The notes below the pieces were generated by a model. It saw nothing but the letters and a program-made list of their open reading frames with translations, was not told the DNA's origin and did not search any database. A stretch of DNA of 32,000 nucleotides from a bacterium (GTDB taxonomy: Bacteria; UBP7; UBA6624; JBBIMK01), in the NCBI GenBank assembly GCA_037444445.1, contig JBBIMK010000015.1:1-32000 (forward strand). The letters are read 5' to 3'. The translations under genes and the position numbers were made by a program. This document shows positions 1,741-29,424 of this stretch, one piece after another. Each line of letters opens with the position of its first letter. Within the stretch, counting starts at the first letter, position 1.

Positions 1741-1747
1741 GCAGGCA

Positions 1748-6449: not shown

Positions 6450-6471
6450 TCCCTCCTACTACCCAAAGAAT

Positions 6472-6915: not shown

Positions 6916-6950
6916 AGTATTTCTTCATTTCCTATAGACACCGGTGATAT

Positions 6951-6970: not shown

Positions 6971-7070
6971 TCTGCATCGTTAGTAATCCGTTATCGGAAG
7001 TGAGAAACAATGAGATTACATCAAGCACTACCCTCCGCGGTCATAAAAAGTAAAGTGCCTCATTTAGTTC

Positions 7071-8684
7071 TCATGAACATTTACAGTGACCCCATCCGCC
7101 GCCTCCAGCGGTTTCCATCCAGAACTCATCCTCTGCTTCCATCTCAAAGACCTGCTTGCCCTGCAGGGGTTCTGGATTTTCACCTTTATGAACGAGGAAG
7201 AATTCCGAGCGAGAACCCGGGAGACCACCCGCCAACCCATAGGGAGAGAAGCGGGAGCGGTCGGCAAACAGAGAAACCCTTGCCCCGGCAGATAGGAGTT
7301 TCCACGCTCGGCGAATTCCCTCTCCACCTCTCCATCTGCCCTCACCCCCGGAGCCTTCCCGGATTTCATATCGCAGAAATTGAATGGGATAGTTATGCTC
7401 CAGAACTTCAATGGGGGTATTCTGGGTATTAGTCATATGGGTATGAACAGCGGAGGGACCATGGAAGAGGGGGCAGGCGCCCGCTCCTCCACCGTTGGTT
7501 TCATAGAATGCCCACTCTTCCTGCGTAATGGGGTCCTTGCCCGACACCACCACATTGTTCATACTCCCACAGGAAGCCGCGGGAACCCGGTCAGGGAGCA
7601 AATGGCTGAGGGCTCTCAATAGGACATCTACAATCCGCTGAGAAGTTTCCAGATTCCCTCCCGCTACAGGGGCTGGATAGCGAGGATGCACCAGCGAGCC
7701 TTCCTCCGCCTCCACCTTCACACAGCGAAAAAAACCGTCATTGACCGGCACTTCAAGAGGTAACAGGCACTTCACCACATAATAACACGCTGAAAGGGTT
7801 ACGCCATAAACCGCATTGAGAGGATAAGAAACCTGCTGACTTGTTCTGAAGAATTGAATCTTTACACTCCCTTTGGAAAATTGGATGGATGCCCGTATCC
7901 ACACCACAGGAAAAGAAGTGGAGAAACCACGCTCCGATGGAAGTTCCAGCACATCCTCTGCCTCCGCCAGGTTAGAGGGAAATTGAGAAAGGTGTGCCCG
8001 GGTGAGTTGCTCTGTGGAATCAAAAATCCCGGTGAAGGATGCCTGTAAATCTTCTAACGGGTATCGGTTCAAGAGTTCCAGAATATGCCGTTCGCCCAGG
8101 AAATTGGCAGAAATCTGCGCTTGCAAATCCCCCTTTACCCAGTCGGGCAATCGCGTATGTCGTAACAGGCTATTGAAAAAATCAGCATTCACCCGGTTAT
8201 TGCGCATCAGGAGTGTGGGAGGAATCACCCATCCTTCATCTTCCAGTGAAGTAGATAAAATTGAAATACCGCCGGCATGCTTTCCTCCCACATCTACATA
8301 ATGGGCTTTGTTTGCCACATAAGCGACCCGAATGCCCTGATAAAAAACCGGGCGAATCACCATCACATCATTCAAATGGGTTCCGGTGAGGTAAGGGTCA
8401 TTGAGAATCCACATTTCTCCTTCCTGGATTTCTTTAGAGGCTTCCTGAATCGCCTTCAAGGTTTGCTTCATTCCCCAGGAGAAAGAGCCGAGATGAACGG
8501 GGATATGTTCAGCAGTGGCGAGCAAACGACCCTCTGGGTCAAACATGGCACAGGTATAGTCTGCTCTCTCTTTGATGTTCGGAGAATAGGCACTCTTCCT
8601 CAGGGCTATTCCCATTTCTTCACAGGCAGTAGATAGAGCATAGCGAATCATTTCTATCTCCACTCCTCCAATGAACATATCCAC
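7071..8684 (-). CDS. hyuB: Hydantoinase B / oxoprolinase family, B subunit
   Basis: N-terminus IEMIRYALSTACEEMGIALRKSAYSPNIKERADYTCAMFD...HIPVHLGS is typical of Hydantoinase_B. The GTG start lies 2 nt after the hyuA stop, with AGGGGG 6 nt upstream. Confidence 0.9.
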   Translation of the reverse strand: MDMFIGGVEIEMIRYALSTACEEMGIALRKSAYSPNIKERADYTCAMFDPEGRLLATAEHIPVHLGSFSWGMKQTLKAIQEASKEIQEGEMWILNDPYLTGTHLNDVMVIRPVFYQGIRVAYVANKAHYVDVGGKHAGGISILSTSLEDEGWVIPPTLLMRNNRVNADFFNSLLRHTRLPDWVKGDLQAQISANFLGERHILELLNRYPLEDLQASFTGIFDSTEQLTRAHLSQFPSNLAEAEDVLELPSERGFSTSFPVVWIRASIQFSKGSVKIQFFRTSQQVSYPLNAVYGVTLSACYYVVKCLLPLEVPVNDGFFRCVKVEAEEGSLVHPRYPAPVAGGNLETSQRIVDVLLRALSHLLPDRVPAASCGSMNNVVVSGKDPITQEEWAFYETNGGGAGACPLFHGPSAVHTHMTNTQNTPIEVLEHNYPIQFLRYEIREGSGGEGRWRGGEGIRRAWKLLSAGARVSLFADRSRFSPYGLAGGLPGSRSEFFLVHKGENPEPLQGKQVFEMEAEDEFWMETAGGGGWGHCKCS

Positions 8685-8686
8685 TA

Positions 8687-10783
8687 CTAACCCCCTTGAT
8701 GAATCTGAAGATTCCGATACCCGTCCACCTTCGCCATCCAGCCCGATGGAATTAAAGTGGTGGAATCGTATTCAAATACGATAGCGGGACCGGTAAGAAG
8801 ATTTCCCGGTAATAGTGACTCTCTCTGGTAGGCTGGAACTTCCATCCACTCGCCATCCCAGAAGATTCGCTGACTTTTCGTTCTGGACTCCGGGGGAGGG
8901 ATGGGCAAATCCTCGGATTCCCTGTGAACTTCTGGCTTGAGGATTTTCCCGATTCCCCGAACGCGAAGATTCACAATTTCCACAGGGTCATCCAGAAAAG
9001 CATAACCGTATACTTTCCGGTGTTGTTGATGAAACAGGGAAAGGACATCCTCCACCGAAAAGCCTGCCGGAGGTAAGGGGATAGAGATTTCATAGGATTG
9101 GCGAAAATAACGAGCATCCATCAGGGACTCAATAGAAATATCTTCCGGGAGAAATCCTTCTTCTCGTAAGATGGTTCGGGCACGCTCTTGCAATAGAAAA
9201 AACTCCTGGAGTAAAGTAAAGAGCAGTTCTTCCGAGGATTTAGAGCCTCTGGAGATGCGATGGAGGAAATGTTTTTGCAGGTCTACAATTCCATCCGCCT
9301 GCAGAAGTCCGAAAGCACTGAAAAATCCGGGGTGAAAAGGAATGACTACTGACGAAATATGAAGGGCTTCCGCAAGGGCACAGGCATGGAGGGGGCCAGC
9401 CCCACCGAAAGCCACGAGGGTGAAATGGGCAGGATTCTCGCCCTTATCTGCTGAAACCAGCCGGAGGGCTTTTTTAATCTGAGCCTGGCTCAACTGGAGG
9501 GCTGCCCAGGCGGATGCTTCTATTTCCCAGTTCTGAGGTCCGGAAACTCTCTTCTCCCACACCCATCGCGCTCGTTCAATGGAAAGAGGCATTTCTCCAC
9601 CCAGAAAGTGAGCGGGATGAAGGTGTCCTAAAAGAAGGTGGGCATCGGTGAGAGTGGCTTCTTCACCGCCCTGGTCGTAGCAAGCAGGGCCTGGCATCGC
9701 TCCGGCGGAAAGGGGTCCAACTGTGAGTTGCCCGGCGGCATTCAGTCTCACGATAGTTCCACCCCCGGCACTTACCTCCGCCAGGTCTACACAGGGATAG
9801 CGGACAGGGTATCCACTTCCCCTCAAATATCGGCTGGCATGCACTTTGCCACCCACTTCATATTCATTTACTACACGAGGAGAACCATCCTTAGCCAGCC
9901 CCGCTTTTGCTGTGGTTCCGCCCATATCCAGGCTCAGAACTCTGGGGAGGTGAAGCAGGCGCGAGAGAAGGGAGGCGGCCGTAACTCCTGCAGCGGGCCC
10001 TGACTCAATGGTGGCTACCGGAAGTTTTTTAATCCGCTCCACACCCACCAGCCCTCCCGATGAAACCATCTGATAAAAAGGAGCGGATATTCCCTTGCTC
10101 CTCAATTCCCTTTGAATATGCTCCAGATACTCTGTCAGGACAGGTATAAGCAAAGCATTGATGAGGGTGGTGGAGAATCGCTCGTACTCCCGGTGTTCCG
10201 GGTTCACATCCGAAGAAAGCACCACGGGGATACGGGGCAAAAAACGGCTTAGAATTTCAAAAGCCCTCCGCTCATTCTCCGGGTTCACGCAAGAGTGAAG
10301 GAAACAGACGGCGACCGATTGCACTTCCTTCTCACGAATCAACCGGGCGCACTCCCGGAGTGCTTCCTCATCTACCGATTGAAAAATTTTTCCATCCGGT
10401 CCTACTCTTTCAGATACGGTGAAACGCAAATTCCGTGGAATAGGTGGAACGGGTTTCTGAAAGAAAAGATTGTAGAGTTCCGGGCGATTTTGCCTGCCAA
10501 TCTCCACAATATCGCGAAATCCTTCCGTAGTCAGTAAAGCGGTTCGGGGAAGAGGCAATCCCATTTGCCCCAGTAAAGCGTTCGTGCCCAGAGTGGTGGC
10601 ATGAGCGAAAAAGGAGAGGGCTGAAAACTTCTCCTCGCCAAGCCTTTGAATCGCTTCCAGAACAGCACGGTGAGGTTCCCGAGGCGTGGAAGGAACTTTG
10701 ATAACCTGACCTGCTCCGCTCTCTTCATTTTGCACGAACAAATCAGTGAAAGTTCCACCCGTATCTATGGCTACCCTGAACAT
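8687..10783 (-). CDS. hyuA: Hydantoinase A / oxoprolinase family, A subunit
   Basis: RVAIDTGGTFTDLF at the N-terminus and DMGGTTAK in the middle are the hydantoinase_A ATPase motifs. The track start 10804 is possible, but ATG 10783 (MFRVAIDTGG) fits the family N-terminus better. Confidence 0.9.
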   Translation of the reverse strand: MFRVAIDTGGTFTDLFVQNEESGAGQVIKVPSTPREPHRAVLEAIQRLGEEKFSALSFFAHATTLGTNALLGQMGLPLPRTALLTTEGFRDIVEIGRQNRPELYNLFFQKPVPPIPRNLRFTVSERVGPDGKIFQSVDEEALRECARLIREKEVQSVAVCFLHSCVNPENERRAFEILSRFLPRIPVVLSSDVNPEHREYERFSTTLINALLIPVLTEYLEHIQRELRSKGISAPFYQMVSSGGLVGVERIKKLPVATIESGPAAGVTAASLLSRLLHLPRVLSLDMGGTTAKAGLAKDGSPRVVNEYEVGGKVHASRYLRGSGYPVRYPCVDLAEVSAGGGTIVRLNAAGQLTVGPLSAGAMPGPACYDQGGEEATLTDAHLLLGHLHPAHFLGGEMPLSIERARWVWEKRVSGPQNWEIEASAWAALQLSQAQIKKALRLVSADKGENPAHFTLVAFGGAGPLHACALAEALHISSVVIPFHPGFFSAFGLLQADGIVDLQKHFLHRISRGSKSSEELLFTLLQEFFLLQERARTILREEGFLPEDISIESLMDARYFRQSYEISIPLPPAGFSVEDVLSLFHQQHRKVYGYAFLDDPVEIVNLRVRGIGKILKPEVHRESEDLPIPPPESRTKSQRIFWDGEWMEVPAYQRESLLPGNLLTGPAIVFEYDSTTLIPSGWMAKVDGYRNLQIHQGG

Positions 10784-10868
10784 TTCATACCTGCCTAATG
10801 GCATTATACAAAATATTACCGCTTCTCACTGGAACACCACACCGCTCGTGCCGGGAGAGTTTTCGCGG

Positions 10869-10874
10869 TATAAT
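10869..10874 (+). promoter_or_regulatory. Candidate -10 box (TATAAT) for the VOC-galE transcription unit, in the divergent hyuA/VOC spacer
   Basis: A perfect TATAAT sits 34 nt upstream of ATG 10908 and 19 nt upstream of the GGAGGTG Shine-Dalgarno sequence. Confidence 0.3.
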
Positions 10875-10907
10875 ATAACTACCAAATTCAACGGAGGTGT
10901 GAAAACG

Positions 10908-11261
10908 ATGAGCAACAAAATTGTGCATGTGGAGATACCCACCACAGATTTAGAAAAGTCAAAAACTTTTTACGAGGGGATTTTCGGATGGAAAGTGAGC
11001 CTGATTCCGGAAATGAACTACGCCATCTTTGAAGTGAAGGATGGCATCGGCGGGGGCTTCAACAGAGTGGAATCCATCGCTCTGAATACGGGCTATATGA
11101 ACTACATTCATGTGGAAGATATAATCGTAACCCTGAAAAAAATTGAAGAAGCAGGTGGAAAAACGGTTTTGCCGAAGACTTCTATCGGGCAGGAGTGGGG
11201 ATATATTGCCATATTCACTGACCCATGCGGTGCTCAGATGGGCCTTTGGGCAAAATCCTGA
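10908..11261 (+). CDS. VOC (glyoxalase/bleomycin-resistance/dioxygenase) family protein
   Basis: GGAGGTG (10893-10899) lies 8 nt before ATG 10908. The motifs IVHVEIPTTDLEKSKTFYEGIFGW and DPCGAQMGLW are typical of the VOC family. The track's upstream extension overlaps the hyuA start and has no support. Confidence 0.85.
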   Translation: MSNKIVHVEIPTTDLEKSKTFYEGIFGWKVSLIPEMNYAIFEVKDGIGGGFNRVESIALNTGYMNYIHVEDIIVTLKKIEEAGGKTVLPKTSIGQEWGYIAIFTDPCGAQMGLWAKS

Positions 11262-11330
11262 AATTGCCGATTTCTATTGCCTGTTCTAATTTTTTTTCCA
11301 GTTCCGAAGCAGGATAGCCTCAAACTCCGC

Positions 11331-12311
11331 ATGAAAATTTGCATCACGGGCGGCGCTGGATATATCGGCTCCTTCACCGCTGAAAACCTTCGGAGAGAAC
11401 ATTCCCTCCTCATTATAGACGACTTTTCTCAGGGACACCGGGACGCCATAAAAGATTATCCAGTGCTGGAAGGAGATTTTGGGAATGAGACCCTGTTAAA
11501 GGAAGCCTTTCAGAACTTCCATCCGGATATAGTGGTTCACCTGGCGGCGATGGCCGTTGTAGAAACATCCTTCCTGGACCCTCAAAAATACTACGATACG
11601 AACGCGGTGAAAACTGGAATACTGCTGGAATCCATGAGAAAATTTGGCATCCAGAATCTCATTTTCTCCTCCTCCGCCTCGGTTTACGGCATGCCCCAAA
11701 ATATTCCCATTTCGGAAGACGCACCTCTTCTTCCCATCAACCCTTATGGTGAGAGCAAGTTGATAGCAGAAACGCTGATACGGACGGCATCAGAGGACTG
11801 GGGGCTGAATGCAGTCATTCTAAGGATTTTTAATGTGGCGGGTGCTTCACCCGAAGTCGGGCTGGGAGAAGACCATTCTCCAGAGACCCATCTGATTCCC
11901 AATCTTTACTCAGCGGTCCTCGGCTATTCCCCTTCCTTCCCACTGGAAGGTTATGGTGAACCTCGCTCTGGCGAGAATGTCTTGCGAGATTTTGTTCATC
12001 CTGCGGATGTGGCGGAAGCCATCGGGCGTTCCACTGCGTTTGTTCCACGCTGTGGCTTGAAAATCTACAATGTAGGCTCCGGGCAGGGCAGAACCGTGAA
12101 AGAGATTTTGGGGATGCTGGAGGAGCAAACGGGTCGCCCGGTGCCAGTTCGTTTTGAAAAGGCTCGCCCCGGGAATCCTCTTCATCTGGTGGCTAACATT
12201 ACAAAAATCCAGCACGACCTGGGATGGGCACCCCGATTTTCCTTCAACGAAATCCTGAATACTACTCTGAAATGGATGAAAACACATCCACATGGTTATG
12301 AGAAGAAGTAA
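11331..12311 (+). CDS. galE: UDP-glucose 4-epimerase (NAD-dependent SDR)
   Basis: MKICITGGAGYIGS Rossmann motif at ATG 11331, the YGESK catalytic YxxxK motif, HSPETHLIP and RDFVHPADVA. Confidence 0.88.
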   Translation: MKICITGGAGYIGSFTAENLRREHSLLIIDDFSQGHRDAIKDYPVLEGDFGNETLLKEAFQNFHPDIVVHLAAMAVVETSFLDPQKYYDTNAVKTGILLESMRKFGIQNLIFSSSASVYGMPQNIPISEDAPLLPINPYGESKLIAETLIRTASEDWGLNAVILRIFNVAGASPEVGLGEDHSPETHLIPNLYSAVLGYSPSFPLEGYGEPRSGENVLRDFVHPADVAEAIGRSTAFVPRCGLKIYNVGSGQGRTVKEILGMLEEQTGRPVPVRFEKARPGNPLHLVANITKIQHDLGWAPRFSFNEILNTTLKWMKTHPHGYEKK

Positions 12312-12394
12312 AGTCTTTTCCACTCGTGACGAATGAAGGGAGAAACCCCTGGAAAAGATTGGAGGATAGTAAAAACCATTACAGAGAAGAGGAT

Positions 12395-12973
12395 TTAGCG
12401 TTTTGGGGAAGGCTCACTGGCTTTTCCGTTCTCTGAGGGGATTTCCTGATTCAGTTCAAAGGAAATATTGGAGGAGCCCATGGCCACGGGTTCAGGGTAG
12501 AAACCGATAAGGTCGCCAGGCTGGCGAGTGCTCGCGTTCCCGTCCTGGTCTAACCGTGCAGTAACCCACACCTTTTTAGCCTCTGCATTCTCATTATTCC
12601 CTGTAAATCCATGAGTGAGCGAAAGGCTGTAGGGGACAGGAAAAGTGCCTGCTTCTATGCGTGTCACAGCAACCGGAGGACCTTCTGCATCTTTTCCCAG
12701 TTTTGCCATAACAAAAAGCACAGAGTTTTTCTTAACTTTATTCACCAGAACAGAAGAAATACCAATTTCACCCGATATTACTTGCTCCTCTGCCACCCCT
12801 GGAATAGCAGGCATCTCTTCCGAGGACGATGGCAGAGCAGGACCTTCCTGCGGCTCAGAGGACTCCTGCTCAACCTTCTCTGAATAGAAAAAGAAATAAA
12901 TGAGAAAGACAAGGATAAATAAAGATAATGCCCCCAAAAAAATCTTTCCTTTATCCGTGTAAGATTTGCTCAT
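12395..12973 (-). CDS. Membrane-anchored periplasmic protein; C-terminal half resembles the C-terminal domain of CcmI/CycH-type cytochrome c maturation proteins (tentative)
   Basis: AGGTGG lies 9 nt before ATG 12973 (MSKSY...). There is one TM helix (IFLGALSLFILVFLIYFFF) and an acidic Pro/Ser linker. The pattern that follows is VLFVMAKL...GPPVAVTRI...VWVTARLDQDGNASTRQPGDLIG, recalled from CcmI C-termini and not verified. Confidence 0.6.
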   Translation of the reverse strand: MSKSYTDKGKIFLGALSLFILVFLIYFFFYSEKVEQESSEPQEGPALPSSSEEMPAIPGVAEEQVISGEIGISSVLVNKVKKNSVLFVMAKLGKDAEGPPVAVTRIEAGTFPVPYSLSLTHGFTGNNENAEAKKVWVTARLDQDGNASTRQPGDLIGFYPEPVAMGSSNISFELNQEIPSENGKASEPSPKR

Positions 12974-13018
12974 ATTTCGCATCCACCTGAAGTATACTAT
13001 ATTCTGAAAAAAGCCTGA

Positions 13019-14068
13019 ATGGACATTCTCACTTTTCAATCTGTGGAGGAAGCGGAACCCTACTGGGTAGAGAACCTTTGCCAGACTCCGTTTGATACGC
13101 CACTGTGGAACAAGTTATGGGCGAAACACAGTCGGGCAAAACCCTTGATTCTTGTGGCTGTGAATGAAAATCGCCCTCTTGCCCTGTGGGCGCTGAAGCG
13201 AGAAAAAAAACTGGGAACAACCCTCCGCTTCCTATCTCATCCAATCGCTGATTACCTGCGTGTTCTGACTCCTCAAAACTCCTCACGAGAAAGCCTGACT
13301 CAACTGCTGAAGTCCATTTACGAGATACCCTGGGATATTTTAGAACTGACCCATATATGGGAAAAAGACCCTCTTCTTCCAATCATTCAAGAATTCACCT
13401 CCAACTGGAAAGCGGAACCCGAGGAATTCTGTCCCTACCTTCTTCTGCCAGGAACCTGGGAAGAGCTTATGAGACGATTGAAAAAGAAATCACGAGATAA
13501 AGTGAAATACTATCAACGAAAAGCGGAAGAAATCGGGCCGGTACATCTAAAAGTGGCGGAAACACCAGAAGCAGTAAAGGAGGCTCTGGAAGCCCATTTG
13601 CGTCTTCACGGCATGCGATGGAGAAGGCGAGGCCAGCCGGGGGTTTACTGGCATCCCCGGGTGGTGGAATTTCATCGGGAATTCGCTCCCTCGGCGGCAG
13701 AAAGGAAAATGTGCCGCATTTACACTCTCTGCATCTCTAACAGGTCGGTGGCTTCCCTTTACGGATTTGCCTACCGAGAAACCTTCTATTTTTACACTTC
13801 GGGTTTTGACCCCCGGTGGCAGGAAGTTAGCCCGGGATTCGTTCTCGTCTCTATGGTGATTCAGGACGCCATCCAGCGAAAAGAAAAATGCTTTGATTTT
13901 TTGAGGGGCGGAGAAAAATACAAATACCGATGGCAACCCGAGAACCGGAAAAATCTTCGCCTCTGGATTTACCACCCCACTCTGACCTCCCGAGTCTTTC
14001 TTCATAAAGCCCGACTTCAATGGTACCTGGAAAAAACAAGCAAGAAAATCCTCCAATCTATGCCATAA
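13019..14068 (+). CDS. GNAT-fold acetyltransferase of the CelD/BcsL-like (Acetyltransf_6) type
   Basis: The 349-aa product has the pattern W..LW......PLILVAV.., LRLHGMRWRRRG, SGFDPRW...SPGFVL and FDFLRGGEKYKYRW. This pattern is characteristic of that family. Confidence 0.7.
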   Translation: MDILTFQSVEEAEPYWVENLCQTPFDTPLWNKLWAKHSRAKPLILVAVNENRPLALWALKREKKLGTTLRFLSHPIADYLRVLTPQNSSRESLTQLLKSIYEIPWDILELTHIWEKDPLLPIIQEFTSNWKAEPEEFCPYLLLPGTWEELMRRLKKKSRDKVKYYQRKAEEIGPVHLKVAETPEAVKEALEAHLRLHGMRWRRRGQPGVYWHPRVVEFHREFAPSAAERKMCRIYTLCISNRSVASLYGFAYRETFYFYTSGFDPRWQEVSPGFVLVSMVIQDAIQRKEKCFDFLRGGEKYKYRWQPENRKNLRLWIYHPTLTSRVFLHKARLQWYLEKTSKKILQSMP

Positions 14069-14204
14069 AAAAGTAATCACCCGAATCTGAAAATCTTTTG
14101 CTTTATTCATTATTTTTTACTATTTTTGTTATCAAGATTTGAAAATATGCTTTTTCAGTTAAGAAGCAGAATGACAAAAAGCCTGAAAGGTGAGGTGAAA
14201 TACC

Positions 14205-14435
14205 ATGAAAATTTATTGGGAAAGATGGGCAGAAAATTCCGCTTGTGCGGTGCGGGTTGACCTTCGTTATCTCCCCGAATCAACAGAATTCATTGATTTC
14301 TTTTCAGGGAATGTTCTCGTTCTCATCTTCTCCTCAAAAGAGGAGCGGTCAGAATTCGGCGTACATTCCGAACACCGTAAAGCAGGAGAAGTAGCGCAAT
14401 TGCCGAAAATATCATCGCATCTTCATACACTGTAG
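14205..14435 (+). CDS. Hypothetical 76-aa ORF (mutually exclusive with the antisense ORF at 14323-14499)
   Basis: GGTGAGGTG lies 7 nt upstream of the ATG. I recognised no motif, and the composition is unremarkable. Confidence 0.25.
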   Translation: MKIYWERWAENSACAVRVDLRYLPESTEFIDFFSGNVLVLIFSSKEERSEFGVHSEHRKAGEVAQLPKISSHLHTL

Positions 14436-14499
14436 CCTGGCGAGTTTCAAAAATTTCCTTGAAACGCTTCAGGTCTACTATCCAATGTAGATATGCCAT
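14323..14499 (-). CDS. Hypothetical 58-aa single-TM peptide (below the ORF-track length cutoff)
   Basis: Hand translation of the minus strand gives MAYLHWIVDLKRFKEIFETRQATVYEDAMIFSAIALLLLLYGVRNVRRILTAPLLRRR, then TGA. GGAGGA sits about 8 nt upstream of the ATG (plus-strand CAT at 14497-14499). It has a clear hydrophobic helix and a polybasic tail. Confidence 0.3.
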   Translation of the reverse strand: MAYLHWIVDLKRFKEIFETRQATVYEDAMIFSAIALLLLLYGVRNVRRILTAPLLRRR

Positions 14500-14736
14500 C
14501 TCTTTTTATCCTCCTCTACAAATTCTGAGAGAAAAAGTGAATCCCCTCTGTATTGTGAAACAGTTAAGTATACTTTTCTTTTCATGATTTTTCACAGCGT
14601 TTTATTAAAAAACACAAGGATTCCAAAATTGCAAGCCTGCCACCTTTTCTCAATGGGTTACCTTACTTAACTCTGCATAATAAAGAAGTTTTCAGCGTGT
14701 TGTGAGGAACTTCCTTTTCTCATACAATTAAATAGT

Positions 14737-17700
14737 GTGAAGAGAAAAAGGAATATAAAAAGAAAGATTTATGGTGCAACGATTTTCCTTATTTTTACAA
14801 TTTTTCTAATCTGGATAGGATACATCTGTCGCAGGACAGGGCAAAACACTGTTCTTACTTTTCAGCAATATGGCCTGGTGCTTTCTTATCAGAGGATAAG
14901 GGTGGAACCATGGAAACTTTCCACCGTGGTAGAACAGTTGAAGATTTTTTCTATCGGTGATACAGAGCCTTTCTTAAGCGCCGATAGGATAGAGGTTTCG
15001 GTGAACTGGAGAATCTTTCTGAATCAACCTGTGTTCAATGCCATCTCCATCCTCAGACCGAGGTTGCAACTGGACAAAGCCCATTTTCCAGCCCTCATCG
15101 CATATATGGGAAAAGAGAAAGGCACCCATTTTCAGGCAGGAAAACTAACCGTAAAAGAGGGGGATTTTTCCTTTCATCCATCGGAGGCAACCTGGGGCTT
15201 TACATTTGAAAACTTCCAGGTGGAAGCCCGATGGAAACAGAGAAAACTGGCAGGAAAGTGGTCTGCATCTGCTCTTCGCTGGAACATTTTGGGATATGAA
15301 ACCCAGCATTCCACATCTTCTGAATTTTTATGGGATGGAAAATCCTGGGTTTTCTTCCATGGCACAGCAAAAAACTTCACAGACCATCTGGAGTGGAACC
15401 TGCGGTTCCAGGCGGATACATTTCAGGGGCTTATGACTGGAAATCTAACGCTCTCCTCTATGCAAAAATTCGCTCCTGATTTAGAATTTCGGCCCATCCA
15501 ACTTAAAGTCCATCATCAAAATGGAGAGTGGAAATTCACCCTTGACCGTTCATCCTTTCAAGGGGGAAATTTGAGTGGAATAGGGAGTCTGAATCCACTG
15601 AAAAAGTCCGGAGAATTTCAAGTGAACTTGCAAAAGATTCCCATAGAGAAAACTCCGGGGGCAAATTCCACCGGAATTGCCGGGAAAGTGGATGGCACCG
15701 CAATCATCCAACTCCATCAAGATAAAGTAATCGCCCGGGCAAACCTTTCCTCGCCCGAACTGCAATTGCCCGACGGATTATCTTTCCATCATGCCTCTGC
15801 AGAACTCCTCTACGACGATGGAACGCTGAAACTTCCCTCTCTCATCTTTTCCTGGGAAGAAGGGAAGGTGGAAGGAAAGGGAGTGATTCACCTTTTCGGA
15901 AAAGAGGAAGACGCATTAGAGGGGAATTTTCAGAATATCCCAGTTGTGAAATGGCTTCCTGGAGCGGAGAAAATTACCGGAACGACATCCCGGATGAGCG
16001 GGTCTGGAAACCTTCACGGGCATTTTCTGCAACAGCAGGTTGTCTCCGTGCAGATGTCTGTCAATATACACACACAAGAAGATGCCCTGCTTCAATCCGG
16101 GTGGTGTAACATCATCTTAAAAAATGGGAAGGTTTCTTTTTTACAAGGAGAAGGGAAATTAAAAGGTGGACTCCTGTCCGCTTCACCAGATGCCGAAGGT
16201 CAGACAGATTTTACGCTAATCATACAGAACCGAGAACTCCTGATAAACCTGATAGAATATTTCAACCTTCCTTTTTTTGAACCCTATCTTCAGAAGATGC
16301 TTTTCCCACCCGGTTCCCAGCCGTTGGTAATTCACTCGGTCTGGAATGGAAACTGGGAAAAGCCCAGCATAACCGGTGCTGTGCGATTCCCTGACCAATT
16401 CCTCATTCAGGATGTGAAGGTGGAACGAGGAGATATTTCATTCGTCTATAAAAATGAGGAAATAAAAATTACAGATTTCACCTTTCATTTGCCCGCAGGT
16501 CCTGAAGGTAACCCCTTGTTATCCCTCGCCGGAAGCCTCACATTTACAAAAGGTCAGTTTTCAGATGGAAAAGTAGAATGGAAGGCCTTCCGTTTAAGCC
16601 TTTCTGATTTACAACATCTCACCTATTTATTTAAGCAATTCCCTCCCAATTCGTGGAATGCACAGGGATTTCTCACAGGCTCTGGAACCTTCATTTTTGA
16701 GAAAGGCAACCTTTCTGGAGAGTCTCAATGTTCCATCGGTGGATTCTCCATTTTCCCCATGGCTTCTCCTTTGCAAATAACCGGGCGTGTGAGAGGCATC
16801 AGGGGGAAATGGAATGTAGAACTTACCGGCGCAGATACCCAGCAAAACCATTCCACCCTGCTGGTAACAGTGGATCCTCTGGAAAAGCAACTACAACTGA
16901 AATGGGCACTACAAGGGATTGCATTATCGTCTGAAATGGAAAATGAAAGAGGTTCTCTTCCATCCTCAAGTCTAAACTTTTTCAATTTCATTAAGCCTGG
17001 AATGAAGGAGTCAGCGTTTTCCACTACACTGACGACGCATGGTCAATTACGGGGATATTTTCCGTATATAGATGGAAGGGCGGATTTTGTGCTAACAGAG
17101 TTAAGAGTGGGAAGCCTTCAGGGTTCAGTGAATGGAGAAATTCAGGTGGAAAAGGGAAAAGCCGTGCTTACTGCCACAGATTCAACTGGATTGGCCACAC
17201 TTCACAGCATCGTCAGCCTGTTTCCACCGCACCCCTTTTCTACATTACTTCAGGTTCACGGCGAAAAACCCTTGAATTTAACCCGTATAGGGGCGGTGAA
17301 CTTCCAGGGAGACTTCGTGGTGGAAACCTCTGGCACCCTTTCTCCTTTTCAAATTCAGGATACCACCGGTAAAGTTACTCATCTGAAGTTACAATTGGGA
17401 GAGTTTTTACTACAATCAAAAAGAGAGTTCCTCCTGAACTGGGATTTAACCCAAAATCAGGTGATGACAGAACCCTTTGAGTTAACCGGAGAAAACACTG
17501 TTCTCCAGGCTCAATTATCCATTTCTGTTCCCCACATAACCCGAATAACTGGAAAAATATCCGGTTCCCTGGATTCCCAATGGCTTCACCTTTTTTACCC
17601 CACCTTGCAGATTGAAGGAAAAAATGATGTGGATATAGAGTTTTCATACGATGAAGAACTGGAACTTCAGGGGATTGTCCGGGTATATGAAACGAGTCTG

Positions 17701-20700
17701 AAAATGCCGGTGCTTCCGGTGAAAATCCAACAGATGAGCGGAGAACTTCTGGCAAATGGCACAGAAATAAGCATCAAGAACCTTCGCTTTTTTATGAACA
17801 ACGGATGGGTGGCAGGAGAAGGCTTTTTACAGATGTCCAATGGGCAAATTCGGACATCCTTTTTGGCGCTGGAAGGGAAAGAGATTGATCTCCGACCGGT
17901 GGAGGGTATCCGGTTCAGCGCCGATTTTCATCTGAACTTTTATGCCTATGAGGGGCAGGGATACTTATTCGGTCAGATTCAGGTGATGCAAGGGAAAATG
18001 GAACAAATGCCCCCGGCATCCGAATTTTCTGGATTTCCTGAAGTTCCAGTTTTTCTGGATCTCACGGTGGACATTTGGGATAATTTTTTTCTCCGGGTTC
18101 ATCCGATTCAATCAGAGTTATATGGCTCCGTAAACATTCTGGGAACCCTTTCGGACCCGCACGCCACGGGGCGATTGGAAATCAAACCTACCGGGAAAAT
18201 CCGTCTCGGCAGTAAGGATTTTCAGGTGCAAAGTGGATATGTGGATTTTACGGGTGAGTCTTTTTTACCCCGTGTTTATCTCACCGCATGGGCTGAAGAA
18301 TCTCCCTATCAATTTCAGATGGAAATTCAGGGGCAAGCACCCGATTTACGCGTTTCTCTTTTCTCCACTCCCTCTCTTCCTCAGGAAGATATTTTGGCTC
18401 TTTTGTATACAGGCAGACGTTTAAGCGACTTTCAAGGTGGCCCTCAAAATTTGCCGGCTGAAGCCCTTTCTCTTTCCTTCTCCGCCCTTCTATCACAAAA
18501 TTTAGAAAGGGGATTCTTCCAGAGAGTGGTGATTCCTCCCAGTCTCTTCGGAAAATCGGCAGGGCAAACCTCACTACTCACACTGGGGAAAAGCATCGGT
18601 AGTAAACTGTTTATCACACATTCTACGGATTTAGAAGCAGGCAAAGAAAGCACCACGGAACTTTCCTACCGCTTCCGTCCGAACTGGGAATTCATCCTTC
18701 AAAGAGATGAAGAGCGTGAGCCCGGCATCGTGCTAAAATACCAGGGATTGATGGGCAAGAAAAAAACCCCCTTTTTCTCCTTCTCCCTTCCTCATAAAAT
18801 TCGTGAAATTCAGTTACAATCTGACCTGAATGAGCCTTACCATTCCCAGCTCTTGAGTTTCATCCCTTACAAGGCTGGAGACCCCATTCGCACAGCCCAG
18901 CAAAGTCAAATCCGTGAATCCATTCTCCAGTGGTTACATTCTCACGGCTATCTTCAAGCATTTGTGAATGTTTCTCTGGAAGAACTCCCGGATGGAGTGA
19001 ACATCCAGATACGTGTTAACGCCGGTGCTATAAAAGAGGTTCAAATAGAAGGCGTGGAGGAACCGGACAGACGGGCTCTGGAAAATAGAATCAGGGAAAT
19101 CTGGAAAGAAGCCATATCCGACCGCTCCTTTGCGGCGGAAGCCATCCAGGAAATCCAACACTTTTATCAAGAAAGAGGATACTTATTTGCGGAGAGCCGG
19201 ATTAAGTTAGAGAGGGAAGCGGAAAAAACACGAGCCATTATCACAATTGCAAAAGGACGCTTGCAAAGGGTAGAGACGGTTCAATTCGTGGGTGCGTCTC
19301 CAGATTTTCAACCCTTCCTACGAAAGCAAATGCTACTGAAATCAGGAAGCCTCATTGTAGCCTCTCTCTTGAAACAGACTCAGGAGCGGTTTTCCTTATT
19401 CTACCAGGATAATGGATTCTACGATGTGCATATGGAGCATTCTATTCTTCAGGTAGAAAATAAAGATACAGCCATCGTTACTTTTCAGATTCAGGAAGGG
19501 ATTCGGTATAGGCTACGCTCTGTGGCCGTGCAAAGCGATGAAAAAATAGAAGACGCCATCGGACAGCCCTGGAAAAAAATGATGAGGATTGGAGAACCGT
19601 TGTCCATTACAAGCGTTCAGCAAGCAAAGAAGGAATTGCTTCATGCTTTGCAAAAGCAAGGCTATTTGGAAGCTGCCGTTCAGTTCTATATTCTGAAATC
19701 TCCGGAAGTGGGAGAGGCAGATGTCCTTTTTTCTTTGAAAAGCGGTCCCCTTTATACCATTCAGGACCATCAAATCACTGGAGTTTCGTCTCCATACTTG
19801 AAGTCTCTCATAGAAAAAGAAGTTGTTTTTCATCCCGGGGAACCTTTGAACCTGGAAAAACTGGAGGAAACGCGTTGGAACATTTCTTCCACAGGTCTTT
19901 TTCAATCTGTGCGAGTAACCTATACGAAGGGAATGCGTGAATCCTCACAGTCAAATCTTGTCCCTTGCCATGTCCAGATTTATGCGGAAGAAAATACTTC
20001 CATTTCACTGGTGGCTCGCGGGGGCTGGAATGCTTCTCAGGGTGCGGATATCTCCATATATCTTACGGACTACAACTGGGCACACTCTGGCAAGCAAGCC
20101 TACATCCAGGGGGAGGCATCTGAACGTGTACTCACCAGCGGGTTGGGATTATCCACACCACGACTCTGGGCTCGGAATCAGCAAGGCAGCGTATCCCTGC
20201 TATTTCAGCGAGAAAAACAGGCCGCCTTCACCCTGAGTCGCGAGAATGCCATTGTAGAATTCCGGCGCACACCGCAGAGGTTTAACCAGTTTACCATCCG
20301 GTTAAACCTGGAGAAGGCACGATATTCCGATTTCACAGGTGACCCTACCAGTTTCCCACGCAAGGATGAATTCCTTTCCAGTTTAACCTTTTCCTACCTG
20401 AGGGACCGACGAGATGACTTCCTTTTTCCGTCTCACGGCGACCTTCTCATTACCAGCCTGAAAACCTCAGGTGATTTTATGGGGTCACAACGAGATTTCG
20501 TTCGGACTTATTTTCAGTATACCCGCTTCCAGCCACTCCCCTCTCATTTAACTCTGGCTACCGGAGTGCGTCTCGGCCTGGGAAAAACCTTTGATGCGGA
20601 CTCTCTGCTTCCACCGGGCGAGCGATTTTTCGCGGGCGGTGATAACTCCCTCCGGGGATTTGAAGTCAATACCCTCGGACCCAAAGACCCACAAACAGCG

Positions 20701-20973
20701 AAGCCCATTGGCGGTAATGCCATGCTTCTACTCAATCAAGAACTCCGATACCGCCTCTCTTCCTCCTACGGGTTTCATATCTTTTACGATTATGGAAATA
20801 TTTTTCGCAGGGTCGCCGATGTAGAAAACTGGCGGGGGCGCTCCGGCGCCGGCGTTGGTGCTTTTTTTCAAACACCCCTGGGACCATTTCGTCTGGAACT
20901 TGCCCGAAACCTGAATCCGGAGCCTACCGAAGATACTTACCGCATCCACTTCGGCTTTGGCTTTGCCTTTTAA
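14737..20973 (+). CDS. Fusion protein: TamB/AsmA-like envelope-spanning protein (aa 1 to about 1336) joined to an Omp85 BamA/TamA-like protein (5 POTRA-like repeats plus beta-barrel)
   Basis: GTG 14737 is the first start codon after in-frame TAA 14668-14670, and there is no stop for 2078 codons. The N-terminus is basic and carries a TM helix (YGATIFLIFTIFLIWIGYI). A DUF490-like block runs from about 18058 to 18744 (GRLEIKPTGKIRLGSKDFQVQSGYVDFTG, STPSLPQEDILALLYTGR, LTLGKSIGSKLFI, ELSYRFRPNWEFILQRD..IVLKYQ). Five repeats of about 79 aa occupy 18799-19980. The barrel spans 19981-20970, with LRGF at 20650-20661 and the terminal HFGFGFAF. Confidence 0.9.
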   Translation: MKRKRNIKRKIYGATIFLIFTIFLIWIGYICRRTGQNTVLTFQQYGLVLSYQRIRVEPWKLSTVVEQLKIFSIGDTEPFLSADRIEVSVNWRIFLNQPVFNAISILRPRLQLDKAHFPALIAYMGKEKGTHFQAGKLTVKEGDFSFHPSEATWGFTFENFQVEARWKQRKLAGKWSASALRWNILGYETQHSTSSEFLWDGKSWVFFHGTAKNFTDHLEWNLRFQADTFQGLMTGNLTLSSMQKFAPDLEFRPIQLKVHHQNGEWKFTLDRSSFQGGNLSGIGSLNPLKKSGEFQVNLQKIPIEKTPGANSTGIAGKVDGTAIIQLHQDKVIARANLSSPELQLPDGLSFHHASAELLYDDGTLKLPSLIFSWEEGKVEGKGVIHLFGKEEDALEGNFQNIPVVKWLPGAEKITGTTSRMSGSGNLHGHFLQQQVVSVQMSVNIHTQEDALLQSGWCNIILKNGKVSFLQGEGKLKGGLLSASPDAEGQTDFTLIIQNRELLINLIEYFNLPFFEPYLQKMLFPPGSQPLVIHSVWNGNWEKPSITGAVRFPDQFLIQDVKVERGDISFVYKNEEIKITDFTFHLPAGPEGNPLLSLAGSLTFTKGQFSDGKVEWKAFRLSLSDLQHLTYLFKQFPPNSWNAQGFLTGSGTFIFEKGNLSGESQCSIGGFSIFPMASPLQITGRVRGIRGKWNVELTGADTQQNHSTLLVTVDPLEKQLQLKWALQGIALSSEMENERGSLPSSSLNFFNFIKPGMKESAFSTTLTTHGQLRGYFPYIDGRADFVLTELRVGSLQGSVNGEIQVEKGKAVLTATDSTGLATLHSIVSLFPPHPFSTLLQVHGEKPLNLTRIGAVNFQGDFVVETSGTLSPFQIQDTTGKVTHLKLQLGEFLLQSKREFLLNWDLTQNQVMTEPFELTGENTVLQAQLSISVPHITRITGKISGSLDSQWLHLFYPTLQIEGKNDVDIEFSYDEELELQGIVRVYETSLKMPVLPVKIQQMSGELLANGTEISIKNLRFFMNNGWVAGEGFLQMSNGQIRTSFLALEGKEIDLRPVEGIRFSADFHLNFYAYEGQGYLFGQIQVMQGKMEQMPPASEFSGFPEVPVFLDLTVDIWDNFFLRVHPIQSELYGSVNILGTLSDPHATGRLEIKPTGKIRLGSKDFQVQSGYVDFTGESFLPRVYLTAWAEESPYQFQMEIQGQAPDLRVSLFSTPSLPQEDILALLYTGRRLSDFQGGPQNLPAEALSLSFSALLSQNLERGFFQRVVIPPSLFGKSAGQTSLLTLGKSIGSKLFITHSTDLEAGKESTTELSYRFRPNWEFILQRDEEREPGIVLKYQGLMGKKKTPFFSFSLPHKIREIQLQSDLNEPYHSQLLSFIPYKAGDPIRTAQQSQIRESILQWLHSHGYLQAFVNVSLEELPDGVNIQIRVNAGAIKEVQIEGVEEPDRRALENRIREIWKEAISDRSFAAEAIQEIQHFYQERGYLFAESRIKLEREAEKTRAIITIAKGRLQRVETVQFVGASPDFQPFLRKQMLLKSGSLIVASLLKQTQERFSLFYQDNGFYDVHMEHSILQVENKDTAIVTFQIQEGIRYRLRSVAVQSDEKIEDAIGQPWKKMMRIGEPLSITSVQQAKKELLHALQKQGYLEAAVQFYILKSPEVGEADVLFSLKSGPLYTIQDHQITGVSSPYLKSLIEKEVVFHPGEPLNLEKLEETRWNISSTGLFQSVRVTYTKGMRESSQSNLVPCHVQIYAEENTSISLVARGGWNASQGADISIYLTDYNWAHSGKQAYIQGEASERVLTSGLGLSTPRLWARNQQGSVSLLFQREKQAAFTLSRENAIVEFRRTPQRFNQFTIRLNLEKARYSDFTGDPTSFPRKDEFLSSLTFSYLRDRRDDFLFPSHGDLLITSLKTSGDFMGSQRDFVRTYFQYTRFQPLPSHLTLATGVRLGLGKTFDADSLLPPGERFFAGGDNSLRGFEVNTLGPKDPQTAKPIGGNAMLLLNQELRYRLSSSYGFHIFYDYGNIFRRVADVENWRGRSGAGVGAFFQTPLGPFRLELARNLNPEPTEDTYRIHFGFGFAF

Positions 20974-26675: not shown

Positions 26676-27283
26676 TAACCTTCACTTCCTGGAAGAATTC
26701 TCACTTTCCGACCCTCTACCTTCAGCCGATTCTCGGCAAAAAGACGAACCGCCTGAGGATAAATTCTATGTTCTTCCCTCAAAATTCGTTCTTCCAGCAT
26801 TTCTGGCGAATCGTCCGTATGAACAGGAACGACTGCCTGGAGGATGATCGGTCCTGCATCCACTTTTTCATCTACGAAGTGAACCGTGCAACCGGCTACT
26901 TTCACGCCATATTCCCACGCTCTTTGTTGAGCATGGAGTCCCTTAAAAGATGGAAGCAAAGCCGGGTGAATATTTAGAATTCGTCGGGGGAAAGTTTGAA
27001 CAAAAGTCGGACTGAGAATTCTCATAAAACCAGCCAGACAAATCAAATCCACTCTATACTCCTGGAGTTTCTGTATCAACTGCTGTTCAAAATCCGGCAG
27101 GGAGGGTGAAACATACTCTGCTGGCACCTGCTTCAAAGATGCTCGTTTTAAGCCGTAAGCATCTTCCCGGTCGCTCAAAACTATTACCACTTTACCTGGA
27201 ATACGGCCATCCTCACAAGCATCCAGAATGGCTTGTAGATTTGACCCTCTGCCGGACACCAGAACTCCAATGCGGATGCTCAT
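26675..27283 (-). CDS. purN: Phosphoribosylglycinamide formyltransferase
   Basis: Motifs IGVLVSGRGSNLQAILDA, LAGFMRIL, NIHPALLPSFKG and GCTVHFVDEKVDAGPII. The start overlaps the pnp stop (ATGA). Confidence 0.9.
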   Translation of the reverse strand: MSIRIGVLVSGRGSNLQAILDACEDGRIPGKVVIVLSDREDAYGLKRASLKQVPAEYVSPSLPDFEQQLIQKLQEYRVDLICLAGFMRILSPTFVQTFPRRILNIHPALLPSFKGLHAQQRAWEYGVKVAGCTVHFVDEKVDAGPIILQAVVPVHTDDSPEMLEERILREEHRIYPQAVRLFAENRLKVEGRKVRILPGSEG

Positions 27284-29424
27284 CTTTCCCTTCTTGAATG
27301 CTGAACGAACCCCTTCATAGATAGCGAAATTTTACCGGTATCATCATCGTAATCCAGGACTTTCACAGCCACTTCCTCACCTGTCTTCAGTAACTGGTGC
27401 ACATCTTTCCCCCGGGAATCAGGAATTTCAGAGATATGCAGAAGCCCTACTTTCCCGTGGAGGATTTCCACGAGAGCGCCAAAACTCATAAGACGCTTCA
27501 CTTTGCCCCGATAAATTTTTCCGATTTCAACCTCGCGAATGAGATTTCTTATCATCGTTTGCACTTTCAGAGCGACTTCTGCGTTTTCTGCCGTTACAAA
27601 GATGCGTCCATCGTCTTCTATGTCCACCTTCGCTCCTGTTTCATCGGTAATTTTCCGAATATTCTTGCCACCGGTGCCAATCACCCCTCCAATCCTTTCT
27701 GGCGGAACCGAAAAAATTAAAATGTGAGGGGCGCGGGGAGAAAGTTCAGAACGAGGTGCCGGCAGGACCTCTTTAATTTTGGAAAGGATAAATAGACGAC
27801 CCAGGCGCGCTTTTTCCAGCGCCTGACGGATAATTTCCCTGGTTAACCCCGGGATTTTCACATCTAACTGGATAGCGGTAATCCCCACCTCAGAGCCCGC
27901 CACCTTAAAATCCATGTCGCCAACAGCATCTTCTAACCCCTGTATATCAGTGAGAATTAAATATTCAGAACCTTCTTCCAGGAGCCCCAAAGCCACACCA
28001 GCGACAGGGCGCTGAATAGGCACTCCCGCGTCCATCAATGCAAGGGTGCTACCGCACACACTGGCCATAGAAGTAGAACCATTGGAGGAAATTACTTCAG
28101 AAACCAGGCGAATGGTATAAGGAAATACTTCCTTGGGGGGTATCATCGGATATAGAGCTCTTTCGGCCAGAGCACCATGCCCTACTTCTCTGCGCCCCGG
28201 GGAGCGAATGGGCTTCACTTCACCGGTGGAATATCCTGGGAAGTTATACTGGTGGAGAAAGCGCTTATACTCATCCGGCGTTAAATTTTCAATAATCTGT
28301 TCTTCACCGGGTGCACCCAGAGTAGCGATAGTCATCACCTGAGTTAGACCTCTTTGAAACAGAGCAGAGCCGTGAGCTCGTGGAAGAAAGTTCACTTGAA
28401 TCTGGATGTCTCGAATCTCATCCAAACTTCGCCCATCGGGGCGGCGTTTTTCTTCCTTGATAAAACGGCGAACCTCCCGTCGCTTCACCTCTTCGTATAA
28501 TTCACTGGCTATAATAGGGTTCTCCGAAGGAAAATCCTTCTCCAGAGTTTTCTTGATTTTCAGGCTGCCCTGCCGAAAAATTTCATCCATTTCCATTTTG
28601 CTTTTCCGGGTTAATGCCTCCCGGACAGATTCTATGGCCAGGGATTCCACTAACTGAGCCGCTTCAGCCGATAGCCGGCGAGGCTCATAGGAAAATTTCG
28701 GCATACCGTGCTTTTGCTTCAATTCTTCAATAAAATCAATGACCTGGAGAATCGTCGGATATGCGAAATCTATGGCCTGCAGGATGGTTTCTTCAGCCTC
28801 TTCTACGGCTCCCGCTTCCAGGACGACCACTTTTTCACGAGTGGCAGATATGACGAGGTCCAGTGTGCCTTTTTCCAGTTGTTCAAAACTGGGATTGAGA
28901 ACGAATTCACCCTGGATACGACCTACTCGCACAGCGCCCACTGTGGAGCAGAAGGGTATGTCCGAGATGGCAATGGCAGCAGAGGCGCCAATAAGCGCGG
29001 GCACATCCGGGTCGTATTGCTGGTCTGCTGAAAGGGTGGTAGCCACAATCTGAATGTCATGACGAAGGTCTTTCGGGAAAAGAGGGCGGAGGGACCGGTC
29101 AATTAAACGGGCGGTTAAAATGGCTTGCTCTGACGGGCGCCCTTCCCGCTTAAAAAAGCCCCCGGGGATTTTGCCCGCCGCATACATCTTCTCCTCATAA
29201 TCCACCAAAAGAGGCAGAAAATCCGCATCTTCTCGGGGCTCCTTGGAGGCCGTTGCCGACACCAGCACTACAATATCTCCCCATTTCACCAGACAAGAAC
29301 CATTCGCCTGAGAAGCCAGATTTCCCGTCTCCAGGTAGAGTTCATGGCTCCCGAACTGAAGCCCCTTCGCCTTTTCTTCAGAACTGGTTGAGGAAAACTT
29401 CAAACTCTCTTTCACTGCAGCCAT
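27280..29424 (-). CDS. pnp: Polyribonucleotide nucleotidyltransferase (PNPase)
   Basis: Two RNase PH-like halves (GRPSEQAILTARLIDRSLRPLFP; GRREVGHGALAERAL), a KH motif (GGVIGTGGKNIRKI) and an S1 domain (YRGKVKRLMSFGALVEI). The start lies 13 nt inside the 3' end of der. Confidence 0.95.
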   Translation of the reverse strand: MAAVKESLKFSSTSSEEKAKGLQFGSHELYLETGNLASQANGSCLVKWGDIVVLVSATASKEPREDADFLPLLVDYEEKMYAAGKIPGGFFKREGRPSEQAILTARLIDRSLRPLFPKDLRHDIQIVATTLSADQQYDPDVPALIGASAAIAISDIPFCSTVGAVRVGRIQGEFVLNPSFEQLEKGTLDLVISATREKVVVLEAGAVEEAEETILQAIDFAYPTILQVIDFIEELKQKHGMPKFSYEPRRLSAEAAQLVESLAIESVREALTRKSKMEMDEIFRQGSLKIKKTLEKDFPSENPIIASELYEEVKRREVRRFIKEEKRRPDGRSLDEIRDIQIQVNFLPRAHGSALFQRGLTQVMTIATLGAPGEEQIIENLTPDEYKRFLHQYNFPGYSTGEVKPIRSPGRREVGHGALAERALYPMIPPKEVFPYTIRLVSEVISSNGSTSMASVCGSTLALMDAGVPIQRPVAGVALGLLEEGSEYLILTDIQGLEDAVGDMDFKVAGSEVGITAIQLDVKIPGLTREIIRQALEKARLGRLFILSKIKEVLPAPRSELSPRAPHILIFSVPPERIGGVIGTGGKNIRKITDETGAKVDIEDDGRIFVTAENAEVALKVQTMIRNLIREVEIGKIYRGKVKRLMSFGALVEILHGKVGLLHISEIPDSRGKDVHQLLKTGEEVAVKVLDYDDDTGKISLSMKGFVQHSRRER

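Follow-up and report, generated by a model that had tools for sequence, protein, structure and literature searches.

A gene joining TamB- and Omp85-type modules in one reading frame, with counterparts in Acidobacteriota

Can TamB, which is anchored in the inner membrane, and its Omp85 partner in the outer membrane be encoded as a single polypeptide, and how would such a protein be arranged across the envelope? The question is raised by a gene on contig JBBIMK010000015.1 of GenBank assembly GCA_037444445.1 (a bacterium of GTDB lineage UBP7), of which positions 1 to 32,000 were analysed (the window, 32,000 nt). A preliminary description of this DNA had claimed an unbroken 2078-aa reading frame with the order anchor, groove, DUF490, POTRA1-5 and barrel. 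The frame was found at 14737..20973 on the plus strand with zero internal stops, and the order of its modules was recovered with Pfam, NCBIfam, AlphaFold2 (AF2) and Foldseek. Its product is probably a single-chain TamB-Omp85 trans-envelope machine, resembling the TAM (translocation and assembly module), made from one genuine gene. The features of the gene are listed below.

14737..20973, plus strand: whole fused gene, 2078 codons and a stop, GTG start, no internal stop.
14737..14841, plus strand: predicted signal anchor, residues 1-35 (basic stretch and one transmembrane helix, uncleaved, inner membrane), by hydropathy and AF2.
14842..18036, plus strand: beta-rich region of TamB/AsmA type (beta-taco segment), by weak Pfam matches, AF2 and Foldseek.
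18037..18753, plus strand: TamB DUF490, residues 1101-1339 (end of the beta-taco, helices and terminal amphipathic strands), by Pfam, alignment and AF2.
18754..18795, plus strand: linker GKKKTPFFSFSLPH, residues 1340-1353, between TamB's C-terminal strand and POTRA1, 14 residues by alignment.
18796..20001, plus strand: POTRA1-5, residues 1354-1755, by Pfam, AF2 and Foldseek.
20002..20970, plus strand: 16-strand Omp85 barrel, residues 1756-2078, by Pfam, AF2 and PDB sequence matches.
20647-20661, plus strand: loop-6 motif SLRGF, residues 1971-1975.
20947-20970, plus strand: C-terminal beta-signal HFGFGFAF.
Junction-spanning peptide sequence: GLMGKKKTPFFSFSLPHK.

In the C-terminal half, Pfam placed POTRA (PF07244, 104 bits) in five stretches and Omp85 (PF01103, 152 bits, above cutoff) at residues 1780-2078. 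The POTRA units lie at approximately 1353-1431, 1432-1505, 1511-1586, 1592-1668 and 1672-1752. The AF2 model of residues 1100-2078 had a mean predicted local distance difference test score (pLDDT) of 85.6 and a predicted template modelling score (pTM) of 0.61, and in it the POTRA region has five beta-alpha-alpha-beta-beta units and the barrel 16 strands, both at pLDDT >90. The five POTRA repeats and the barrel with its LRGF and HFGFGFAF motifs, as first described, were thus recovered by Pfam, AF2 and the positions of the motifs. Foldseek aligned the model over approximately 800 columns onto full-length BamA chains (E ~1e-46), and onto TamA at a template modelling score of 0.72. The best PDB sequence match of the barrel half was TamA (8us1, 1e-24), and BamA 9cmw was matched at 4e-21. 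The NCBIfam equivalog model for BamA (TIGR03303) scored 268.2 bits, below its cutoff of 297.15, and that for TamA (NF047950) scored 187.5 bits against a cutoff of 625, the protein having five POTRA domains and not three. Because both scores were under their cutoffs, this half was classified as an Omp85 of BamA/TamA type that is an equivalog of neither. It has no cleavable signal peptide of its own, and the linker sits at that position.

The TamB family itself (PF04357) was matched at residues 1101-1336 with 89.7 bits (cutoff 22.4), which agrees with the DUF490 domain first proposed for the last ~230 residues of the TamB part, so that the TamB, POTRA and Omp85 families were all found in the halves where they had been expected. 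A profile including DUF490 matched the solved TamB chains 23sp_B (3e-15) and 9xdc_B (7e-14). In the AF2 model, the conserved DUF490 helices are at 1216-1225 and 1241-1257, followed by terminal strands at 1263-1265, 1280-1287, 1291-1298, 1305-1314, 1317-1324 and 1330-1335, the last of which extends to 1339 by alignment. The alternation of hydrophobic and polar residues in these strands is common to the window protein and the fused proteins of Acidobacteriota. Free-standing TamBs aligned to their own last residue (typically ...R-F/Y-(K/R)), ending 0-2 residues from the start of the linker, so the TamB part does end at the normal C-terminus of free TamBs, as the preliminary description had it. 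Past this point the fused proteins run on with G or GG and then a basic linker, and the TamB module lacks a free C-terminus, the chain running on toward POTRA1. The linker had been given as 18 residues; it is 14 by alignment and approximately 17 (1336-1352) by DSSP of the AF2 model, in which it has pLDDT <50 and is predicted to be disordered. Linker length across 102 full-length fused proteins ranges over 13-22 residues (14-18 in 95/102), and the linkers are rich in R, G and P. Neither a signal-peptidase-like hydrophobic core nor a recognisable cleavage motif was seen in the linker.

At the N-terminus, residues 9-34 form the sole strongly hydrophobic segment on a 19-residue scale in the whole protein, and this segment is conserved in the orthologue (L001, below). 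The AF2 model of residues 1-1200 (mean pLDDT 63.9) begins with a helix at 2-34, so that the basic segment and single transmembrane helix first described there were both recovered, and it goes on with almost unbroken beta strands, in which residues 38-476 have pLDDT 50-90 and residues 763-1200 approximately 80-90. Pfam gave weak matches to DUF748 (3-121) and AsmA (342-429), both below cutoff. The best Foldseek matches of this model were the solved TamB chains 9xdd_B, 9xdc_B and 5vtg (probability 1.0), which cover 138-237 columns only, at a place within the model that was not reported; a weaker match was to the bridge-like lipid-transfer complex LPD-3.

The same gene was found on an independent JGI metagenome contig (L001), where the orthologue P0002 has 79% protein identity and the same frame. 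Codon by codon, the two genes have 82% nucleotide identity with a synonymous divergence (dS) of 0.59. The ratio of nonsynonymous to synonymous divergence (dN/dS) between them is 0.20 over the whole gene, 0.25 in the anchor, 0.27 in the beta-taco, 0.10 in DUF490, 0.15 in the linker, 0.20 in POTRA1-5 and 0.07 in the barrel. They differ by two small in-frame indels only, at approximately residues 242 and 478, with zero near the junction. Judged from this pair, the fusion is genuine and is held by purifying selection, and the claim of a fusion in one frame stood.

Fused and split arrangements in other genomes were surveyed with a junction-alignment scan of one genome per GTDB species, and the 15 loci obtained were analysed by ORF and phmmer analysis. 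Eight of the 15 were fused, all eight from Acidobacteriota.

L002-L009, Acidobacteriota metagenome-assembled genomes (Terriglobia, Vicinamibacterales, gp5 and others): fused.
L010 and L011, Desulfosarcina and Chitinispirillaceae: separate genes, tamB followed by omp85.
L012-L014, Kangiellaceae, Krumholzibacteriia and Acidobacteriaceae: separate genes, omp85 followed by tamB.
L015 and L016, Gemmatimonadaceae: only the Omp85 ORF seen.

A junction profile made of the C-terminal half of DUF490, the linker and POTRA1 was then used in a hidden Markov model search of 1.84 billion cluster representatives (50% identity), which gave 2292 matches at E<=1e-30. The 150 matches listed were all at E<=1.6e-108 and nearly all run through the junction as a single stretch; of the 149 that were retrieved, 93 have a length of at least 2000 aa. 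From these matches and the species survey, the fused architecture is a large family, mostly of Acidobacteriota, and the uniqueness implied by the preliminary description was not borne out, with 8/15 species loci fused and 150/150 listed cluster representatives matching the junction profile. The architecture is therefore common, and such proteins carry an automatic double name in JGI/IMG ('BamA/autotransporter translocation and assembly factor Ta...'). A natural TamB-Omp85 fusion was not described in the full-text literature searched, which leaves out most subscription-journal papers. No natural fusion was found in a survey of the Omp85 superfamily (PMC4104836), a study of TAM evolution (PMC4494059), the Borrelia studies (PMC5582053, PMC13382580), a 2026 cryo-electron microscopy (cryo-EM) preprint on the TAM (PMC13119328), or the papers on AsmA-like proteins (PMC12447247) and diderm Firmicutes (PMC13018214).

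The fused proteins of Acidobacteriota (P0003-P0007, P0017, L002-L009, P0174-P0322) have the architecture, the fusion point and the short linker of the window protein, and their POTRA region (~440-470 residues) is similarly long. They differ from the window protein in being ~150-300 residues longer, in having a canonical YRVDFxHDVRF-GG terminal strand and in being abundant, whereas the clade of the window has two members; they have automatic annotation only, and no publication on them was found. Identity between the window protein and these proteins is ~20-21%. Its next-best relatives have 2227-2355 residues, the modules TamB, POTRA and Omp85, and 22-24% identity. In a word-indexed protein search the clade of the window was known from two sequences, the window (P0001) and L001 (P0002), and two scans of metagenome contigs found no further members. 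By sequence comparison, the window protein represents a second fused clade, very divergent and very rare. The PNPase gene of the window (27283-29424, minus strand) has a 99%-identical copy in a Logan assembly, and the next closest sequences, from unclassified 'bacterium' metagenome-assembled genomes, Firmicutes and Caldiserica, are only 52-56% identical. Because PNPase is <=56% identical outside the same organism, the host was taken to belong to a deep, poorly sampled lineage, and it was not among the GTDB species representatives that were scanned.

Several of the other loci bear on how such a fusion could arise. At L010 (1260-8370) and L011 (3811-10452) the unfused operons have the gene order of the fusion; TamB ends with a normal beta-signal (...RLEFR or ...IWELR), and the Omp85, unusually long at 911-956 aa, begins after a further 1-60 nt and has a signal peptide of its own. 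The signal peptide of the L011 Omp85 resembles the lipoprotein type (…LLIMTAC). Such operons are a plausible precursor state of the fusion. The Acidobacteriaceae locus L014 (3913-10921) has the two genes apart and in reverse order, omp85 (1029 aa) and then tamB (1311 aa), and its Omp85 clusters with the Omp85 halves of the fused Acidobacteriota proteins in a neighbour-joining tree of Omp85 halves that is crude, star-like and without support values; L014 suggests rearrangement and fusion within Acidobacteriota. L006 (4787-11571, Acidobacteria bacterium 13_1_20CM_2_55_15) has a 2051-codon ORF followed by an overlapping 218-codon ORF with the barrel end, a split that reflects a frameshift error or else a pseudogene. 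P0009 (1890 aa, Logan assembly, low GC) has a hydrophobic anchor, ~1090 residues without a Pfam match, five POTRA stretches and an Omp85 barrel, and may be a third, more divergent fusion of an AsmA-like protein and Omp85.

Among characterised systems, the E. coli TAM (PDB 9XDC/9XDD, 23SP; PMC13119328) has both modules in the same spatial order, from an anchor to a 16-strand barrel with the loop-6 RGF motif, and its TamB has a DUF490 with helices and six terminal amphipathic strands, as in the fused protein. The E. coli TAM is made of two polypeptides with three POTRA domains, whereas the fused protein is one polypeptide with five; the Omp85 half of the latter lacks a signal peptide and its TamB C-terminus is not free. 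The gene order also differs, being tamA-tamB in proteobacteria (L012) and tamB-omp85 in the fused protein. In Borrelia burgdorferi, TamB (BB0794) interacts with BamA (BB0795) (PMC5582053, PMC13382580), a five-POTRA Omp85 of BamA type, and the genes are adjacent (PMC5582053, PMC11361582, PMC13382580). An AlphaFold 3 model of this pair has a hybrid barrel completed by the TamB terminal strands, with POTRA1 close to POTRA5 (PMC13382580), which is the geometry that a short covalent linker would need. Borrelia differs in that the two proteins are separate chains and its BamA is the sole essential insertase. For Acidobacteria and Aquificae, a BamA-TamB operon has been reported in which the two proteins have separate genes and the BamA is a second, TamA-like copy that in some cases carries extra POTRA domains (PMC4494059).

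In nanodiscs, the E. coli TAM has the six final strands of TamB within the membrane (PMC13119328; PDB 9XDC). The TamB strand with the beta-signal joins TamA beta1 to form a hybrid barrel, which is stable and works in vivo, and lipid-like densities run along the beta-taco (PMC13119328). Two 2026 cryo-EM studies differ in that the TamB C-terminus is stable in the TamA barrel in one (PMC13119328) and was also seen disengaging in the other (PDB 9XDC, 9XDD). The docking of DUF490 on the POTRA domains, as given in the preliminary description, was incomplete. Because the last six TamB strands are in a hybrid barrel with TamA beta1, the implication of a covalent link between the two halves is altered.

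A mechanism for the single chain was proposed on the basis of the E. coli TAM structures that have been solved and of the model for Borrelia BamA-TamB. The anchor would stay in the inner membrane and the beta-taco would cross the periplasm as a phospholipid conduit (lipid transport by homology, PMC13119328, PMC13542527). The last six amphipathic TamB strands would enter the protein's own Omp85 barrel at its lateral gate and pair with beta1, giving a 6+16-strand hybrid barrel in cis. The strand number being even, the TamB C-terminus would then be back in the periplasm beside the base of beta1, from where the 14-residue linker would bridge to POTRA1. A tether of 14-18 residues spans at most ~50-60 Å and would reach POTRA1 only if the five-POTRA arm curls into a ring, and the arm would thus form a closed periplasmic loop, a giant insert between strands 6 and 7 of the composite barrel. 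The hybrid barrel would be stapled to the inner membrane through the anchor and the beta-taco, and the Omp85 half would be mainly a permanent outer-membrane dock and a membrane-thinning lipid exit site, not a free general insertase. The likely role would be anterograde phospholipid delivery, possibly together with aid to certain outer-membrane proteins in their assembly. Since the lateral gate would be taken up, a separate canonical BamA is predicted elsewhere in the genome, and it would assemble the fused protein via the HFGFGFAF beta-signal.

The linker length of 14-18 residues and the fusion at the TamB C-terminus fit an in-cis hybrid barrel. Tentatively, a constitutive 22-strand barrel (6 TamB and 16 Omp85 strands), with the POTRA ring closed by a tether of ~14-18 residues, may have been hard-wired repeatedly, although this remains a doubtful reading; hard-wiring in the deep lineage of the window and in Acidobacteriota possibly represents independent events. 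Several observations weigh against the proposed arrangement. In the AF2 model of 1100-2078, with its pTM of 0.61, the TamB helices, terminal strands and linker have pLDDT 34-69 only, and residues 504-761 have neither a confident model (pLDDT <50) nor a Pfam match. The terminal strand of the window protein, GIVLKYQGLM, is without the conserved Asp and terminal aromatic residue; the Acidobacteriota strand YRVDFxHDVRF has the Asp and a terminal Phe, and most free TamBs also have a conserved Asp and a terminal aromatic. Two salt-bridge pairs of the E. coli TAM were sought (TamA K283-TamB D1252 and TamA R368-TamB D1200); one profile gave POTRA alignments and another aligned with E. coli TamB no further than residue 1201, in a loop, so that the salt-bridge residues were not mapped.

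Other explanations were weighed against a single-chain machine encoded by one genuine gene. The frame could be an artefact in which a sequencing, assembly or frameshift error had joined adjacent tamB-bamA operon genes, or it could be a decaying pseudogene. Operons with tamB followed by omp85 do exist (L010, L011), and because their spacing is only 1-60 nt a single error could mimic a fusion; the barrel end of L006 in a separate ORF also points this way. Yet an independent assembly with 18% nucleotide divergence has the same frame at the junction, with linker dN/dS at 0.15 and no indels there, the match runs through the junction in nearly all of the 150 cluster representatives listed, and no Omp85 signal peptide is present between the halves, unlike in true operons. 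On these comparisons the artefact is effectively refuted and must be considered exceedingly improbable. It is quite unlikely that the gene encodes a polyprotein, that is, one chain whose linker is cut in the periplasm to give a two-subunit TamB and Omp85, the fusion ensuring 1:1 co-translocation. Such cleavage would agree with a linker that is predicted to be disordered and is basic and R/G/P-rich, hence protease-accessible, and with the free C-terminus that is the norm for TamB. The lack of a signal-peptidase-like hydrophobic core or known cleavage motif in the linker argues otherwise, as do the purifying selection on its sequence and a length held to 14-18 residues, which suggests a structural tether over a disposable spacer; the linker was read as a tether because of this constrained length and selection.

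The remaining alternative concerns the function of the Omp85 half, which could be the main or only BamA of the cell, in a BAM-TAM hybrid as proposed for Borrelia, whose main task would be to hand unfolded outer-membrane proteins along TamB to the insertase, with lipid transport secondary or absent. Its five POTRA domains are as in BamA and not three as in TamA, its best full-length structural matches are BamA chains, and the NCBIfam BamA model scores above the TamA model (268 vs 187 bits); TamB is also found with BamA only in many phyla (PMC4494059), and TamB and BamA interact in Borrelia (PMC5582053, PMC13382580). These points are set against a BamA equivalog score under cutoff (268 < 297), a best PDB sequence match to TamA, and a position of the Omp85 half beside Acidobacteriota TamB-partner Omp85s and not the sampled BamAs, in the crude tree without support values. 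Furthermore, a canonical BamA plus a TamA-like copy adjoining tamB have been reported for Acidobacteria (PMC4494059), and a TamB strand tethered at the lateral gate would hinder general insertase activity, following the argument of the authors of the cryo-EM preprint that an occupied gate is unable to fold substrates BamA-style (PMC13119328). A role as main or sole BamA was accordingly rated as unlikely, and a TAM-like single-chain machine was retained as the preferred interpretation.

The start of the gene was examined together with the region upstream. The public gene calls for the window protein (P0001, 2023 aa) and its orthologue (P0002, 2019 aa) begin at an internal Met, ~55-60 codons late, and because the start was placed ~55-60 residues too late the signal anchor is missing from both. 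The GTG start and the anchor are kept at the orthologous locus (L001, 9815-10000). No Shine-Dalgarno sequence was evident ahead of the GTG start (14737), and one further feature was recorded there.

14700..14728, plus strand: promoter-like element TTGTGA-17-TACAAT, from a consensus scan, 8 nt upstream of the GTG start.

This element has the same letters in L001, and the site counts of the consensus scan were not above chance. Going by conservation of the locus, the true start is the GTG, without an obvious Shine-Dalgarno sequence, and the promoter-like element together with the lack of that sequence hints at a leaderless or near-leaderless mRNA. GC is 0.376 at window positions 14001-15000 compared with ~0.48 elsewhere, a dip that matches the ~670-bp intergenic region upstream of the fused gene. 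A 58-aa minus-strand ORF upstream (start 14499) was dropped as a feature, having no counterpart in L001. An Rfam search found no RNA genes.

Downstream, the window and L001 have a common gene order with cytochrome c, NAPRTase, aldehyde dehydrogenase, PurN, PNPase, Der and CarA. Ahead of the fused gene the order is rearranged (window 1-14700 vs L001 1-9800): the window carries TopA, GH99, CARDB, hydantoinase B and A, GalE-like, CycH-Ig-like and GNAT genes, and L001 has hydantoinase B, AsnC, GH99, PolX, RRM and radical SAM genes and one for a 1123-aa cyclase-TPR protein. No skp, lpxD or bamA is nearby, and for this reason the fused gene was placed outside any conserved envelope-biogenesis operon.

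The fused architecture is apparently without a printed description, although it is widespread in Acidobacteriota and automatically labelled in IMG. The annotation lesson is that such genes are called with truncated N-termini and double names. For structural work the fused protein is a single-chain target of fixed stoichiometry, and it is a design template for engineered TamB-TamA fusions in E. coli. The fusion occurs in hundreds of lineages with a short, constrained tether exactly at the C-terminus of TamB, and is Rosetta-stone evidence for an obligate, long-lived 1:1 partnership of TamB and Omp85; the fusion shows that a free beta-signal at the C-terminus is non-essential. One polypeptide anchored in both membranes would also set the envelope spacing. 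As a natural experiment, the covalent fusion bears on the disputes over how stably the TamB C-terminus sits in the barrel, over whether the hybrid barrel is the constitutive functional state, and over whether the TAM is mainly a lipid bridge or a protein insertase. If the constitutive in-cis barrel is true, the hybrid-barrel state would be the constitutive functional state, the free TamB beta-signal would be dispensable, and the Omp85 would be a dedicated lipid-bridge dock and not an insertase. In the radical sub-case, with no other BamA in the genome, a gate-occupied Omp85 would have to assemble all outer-membrane proteins.

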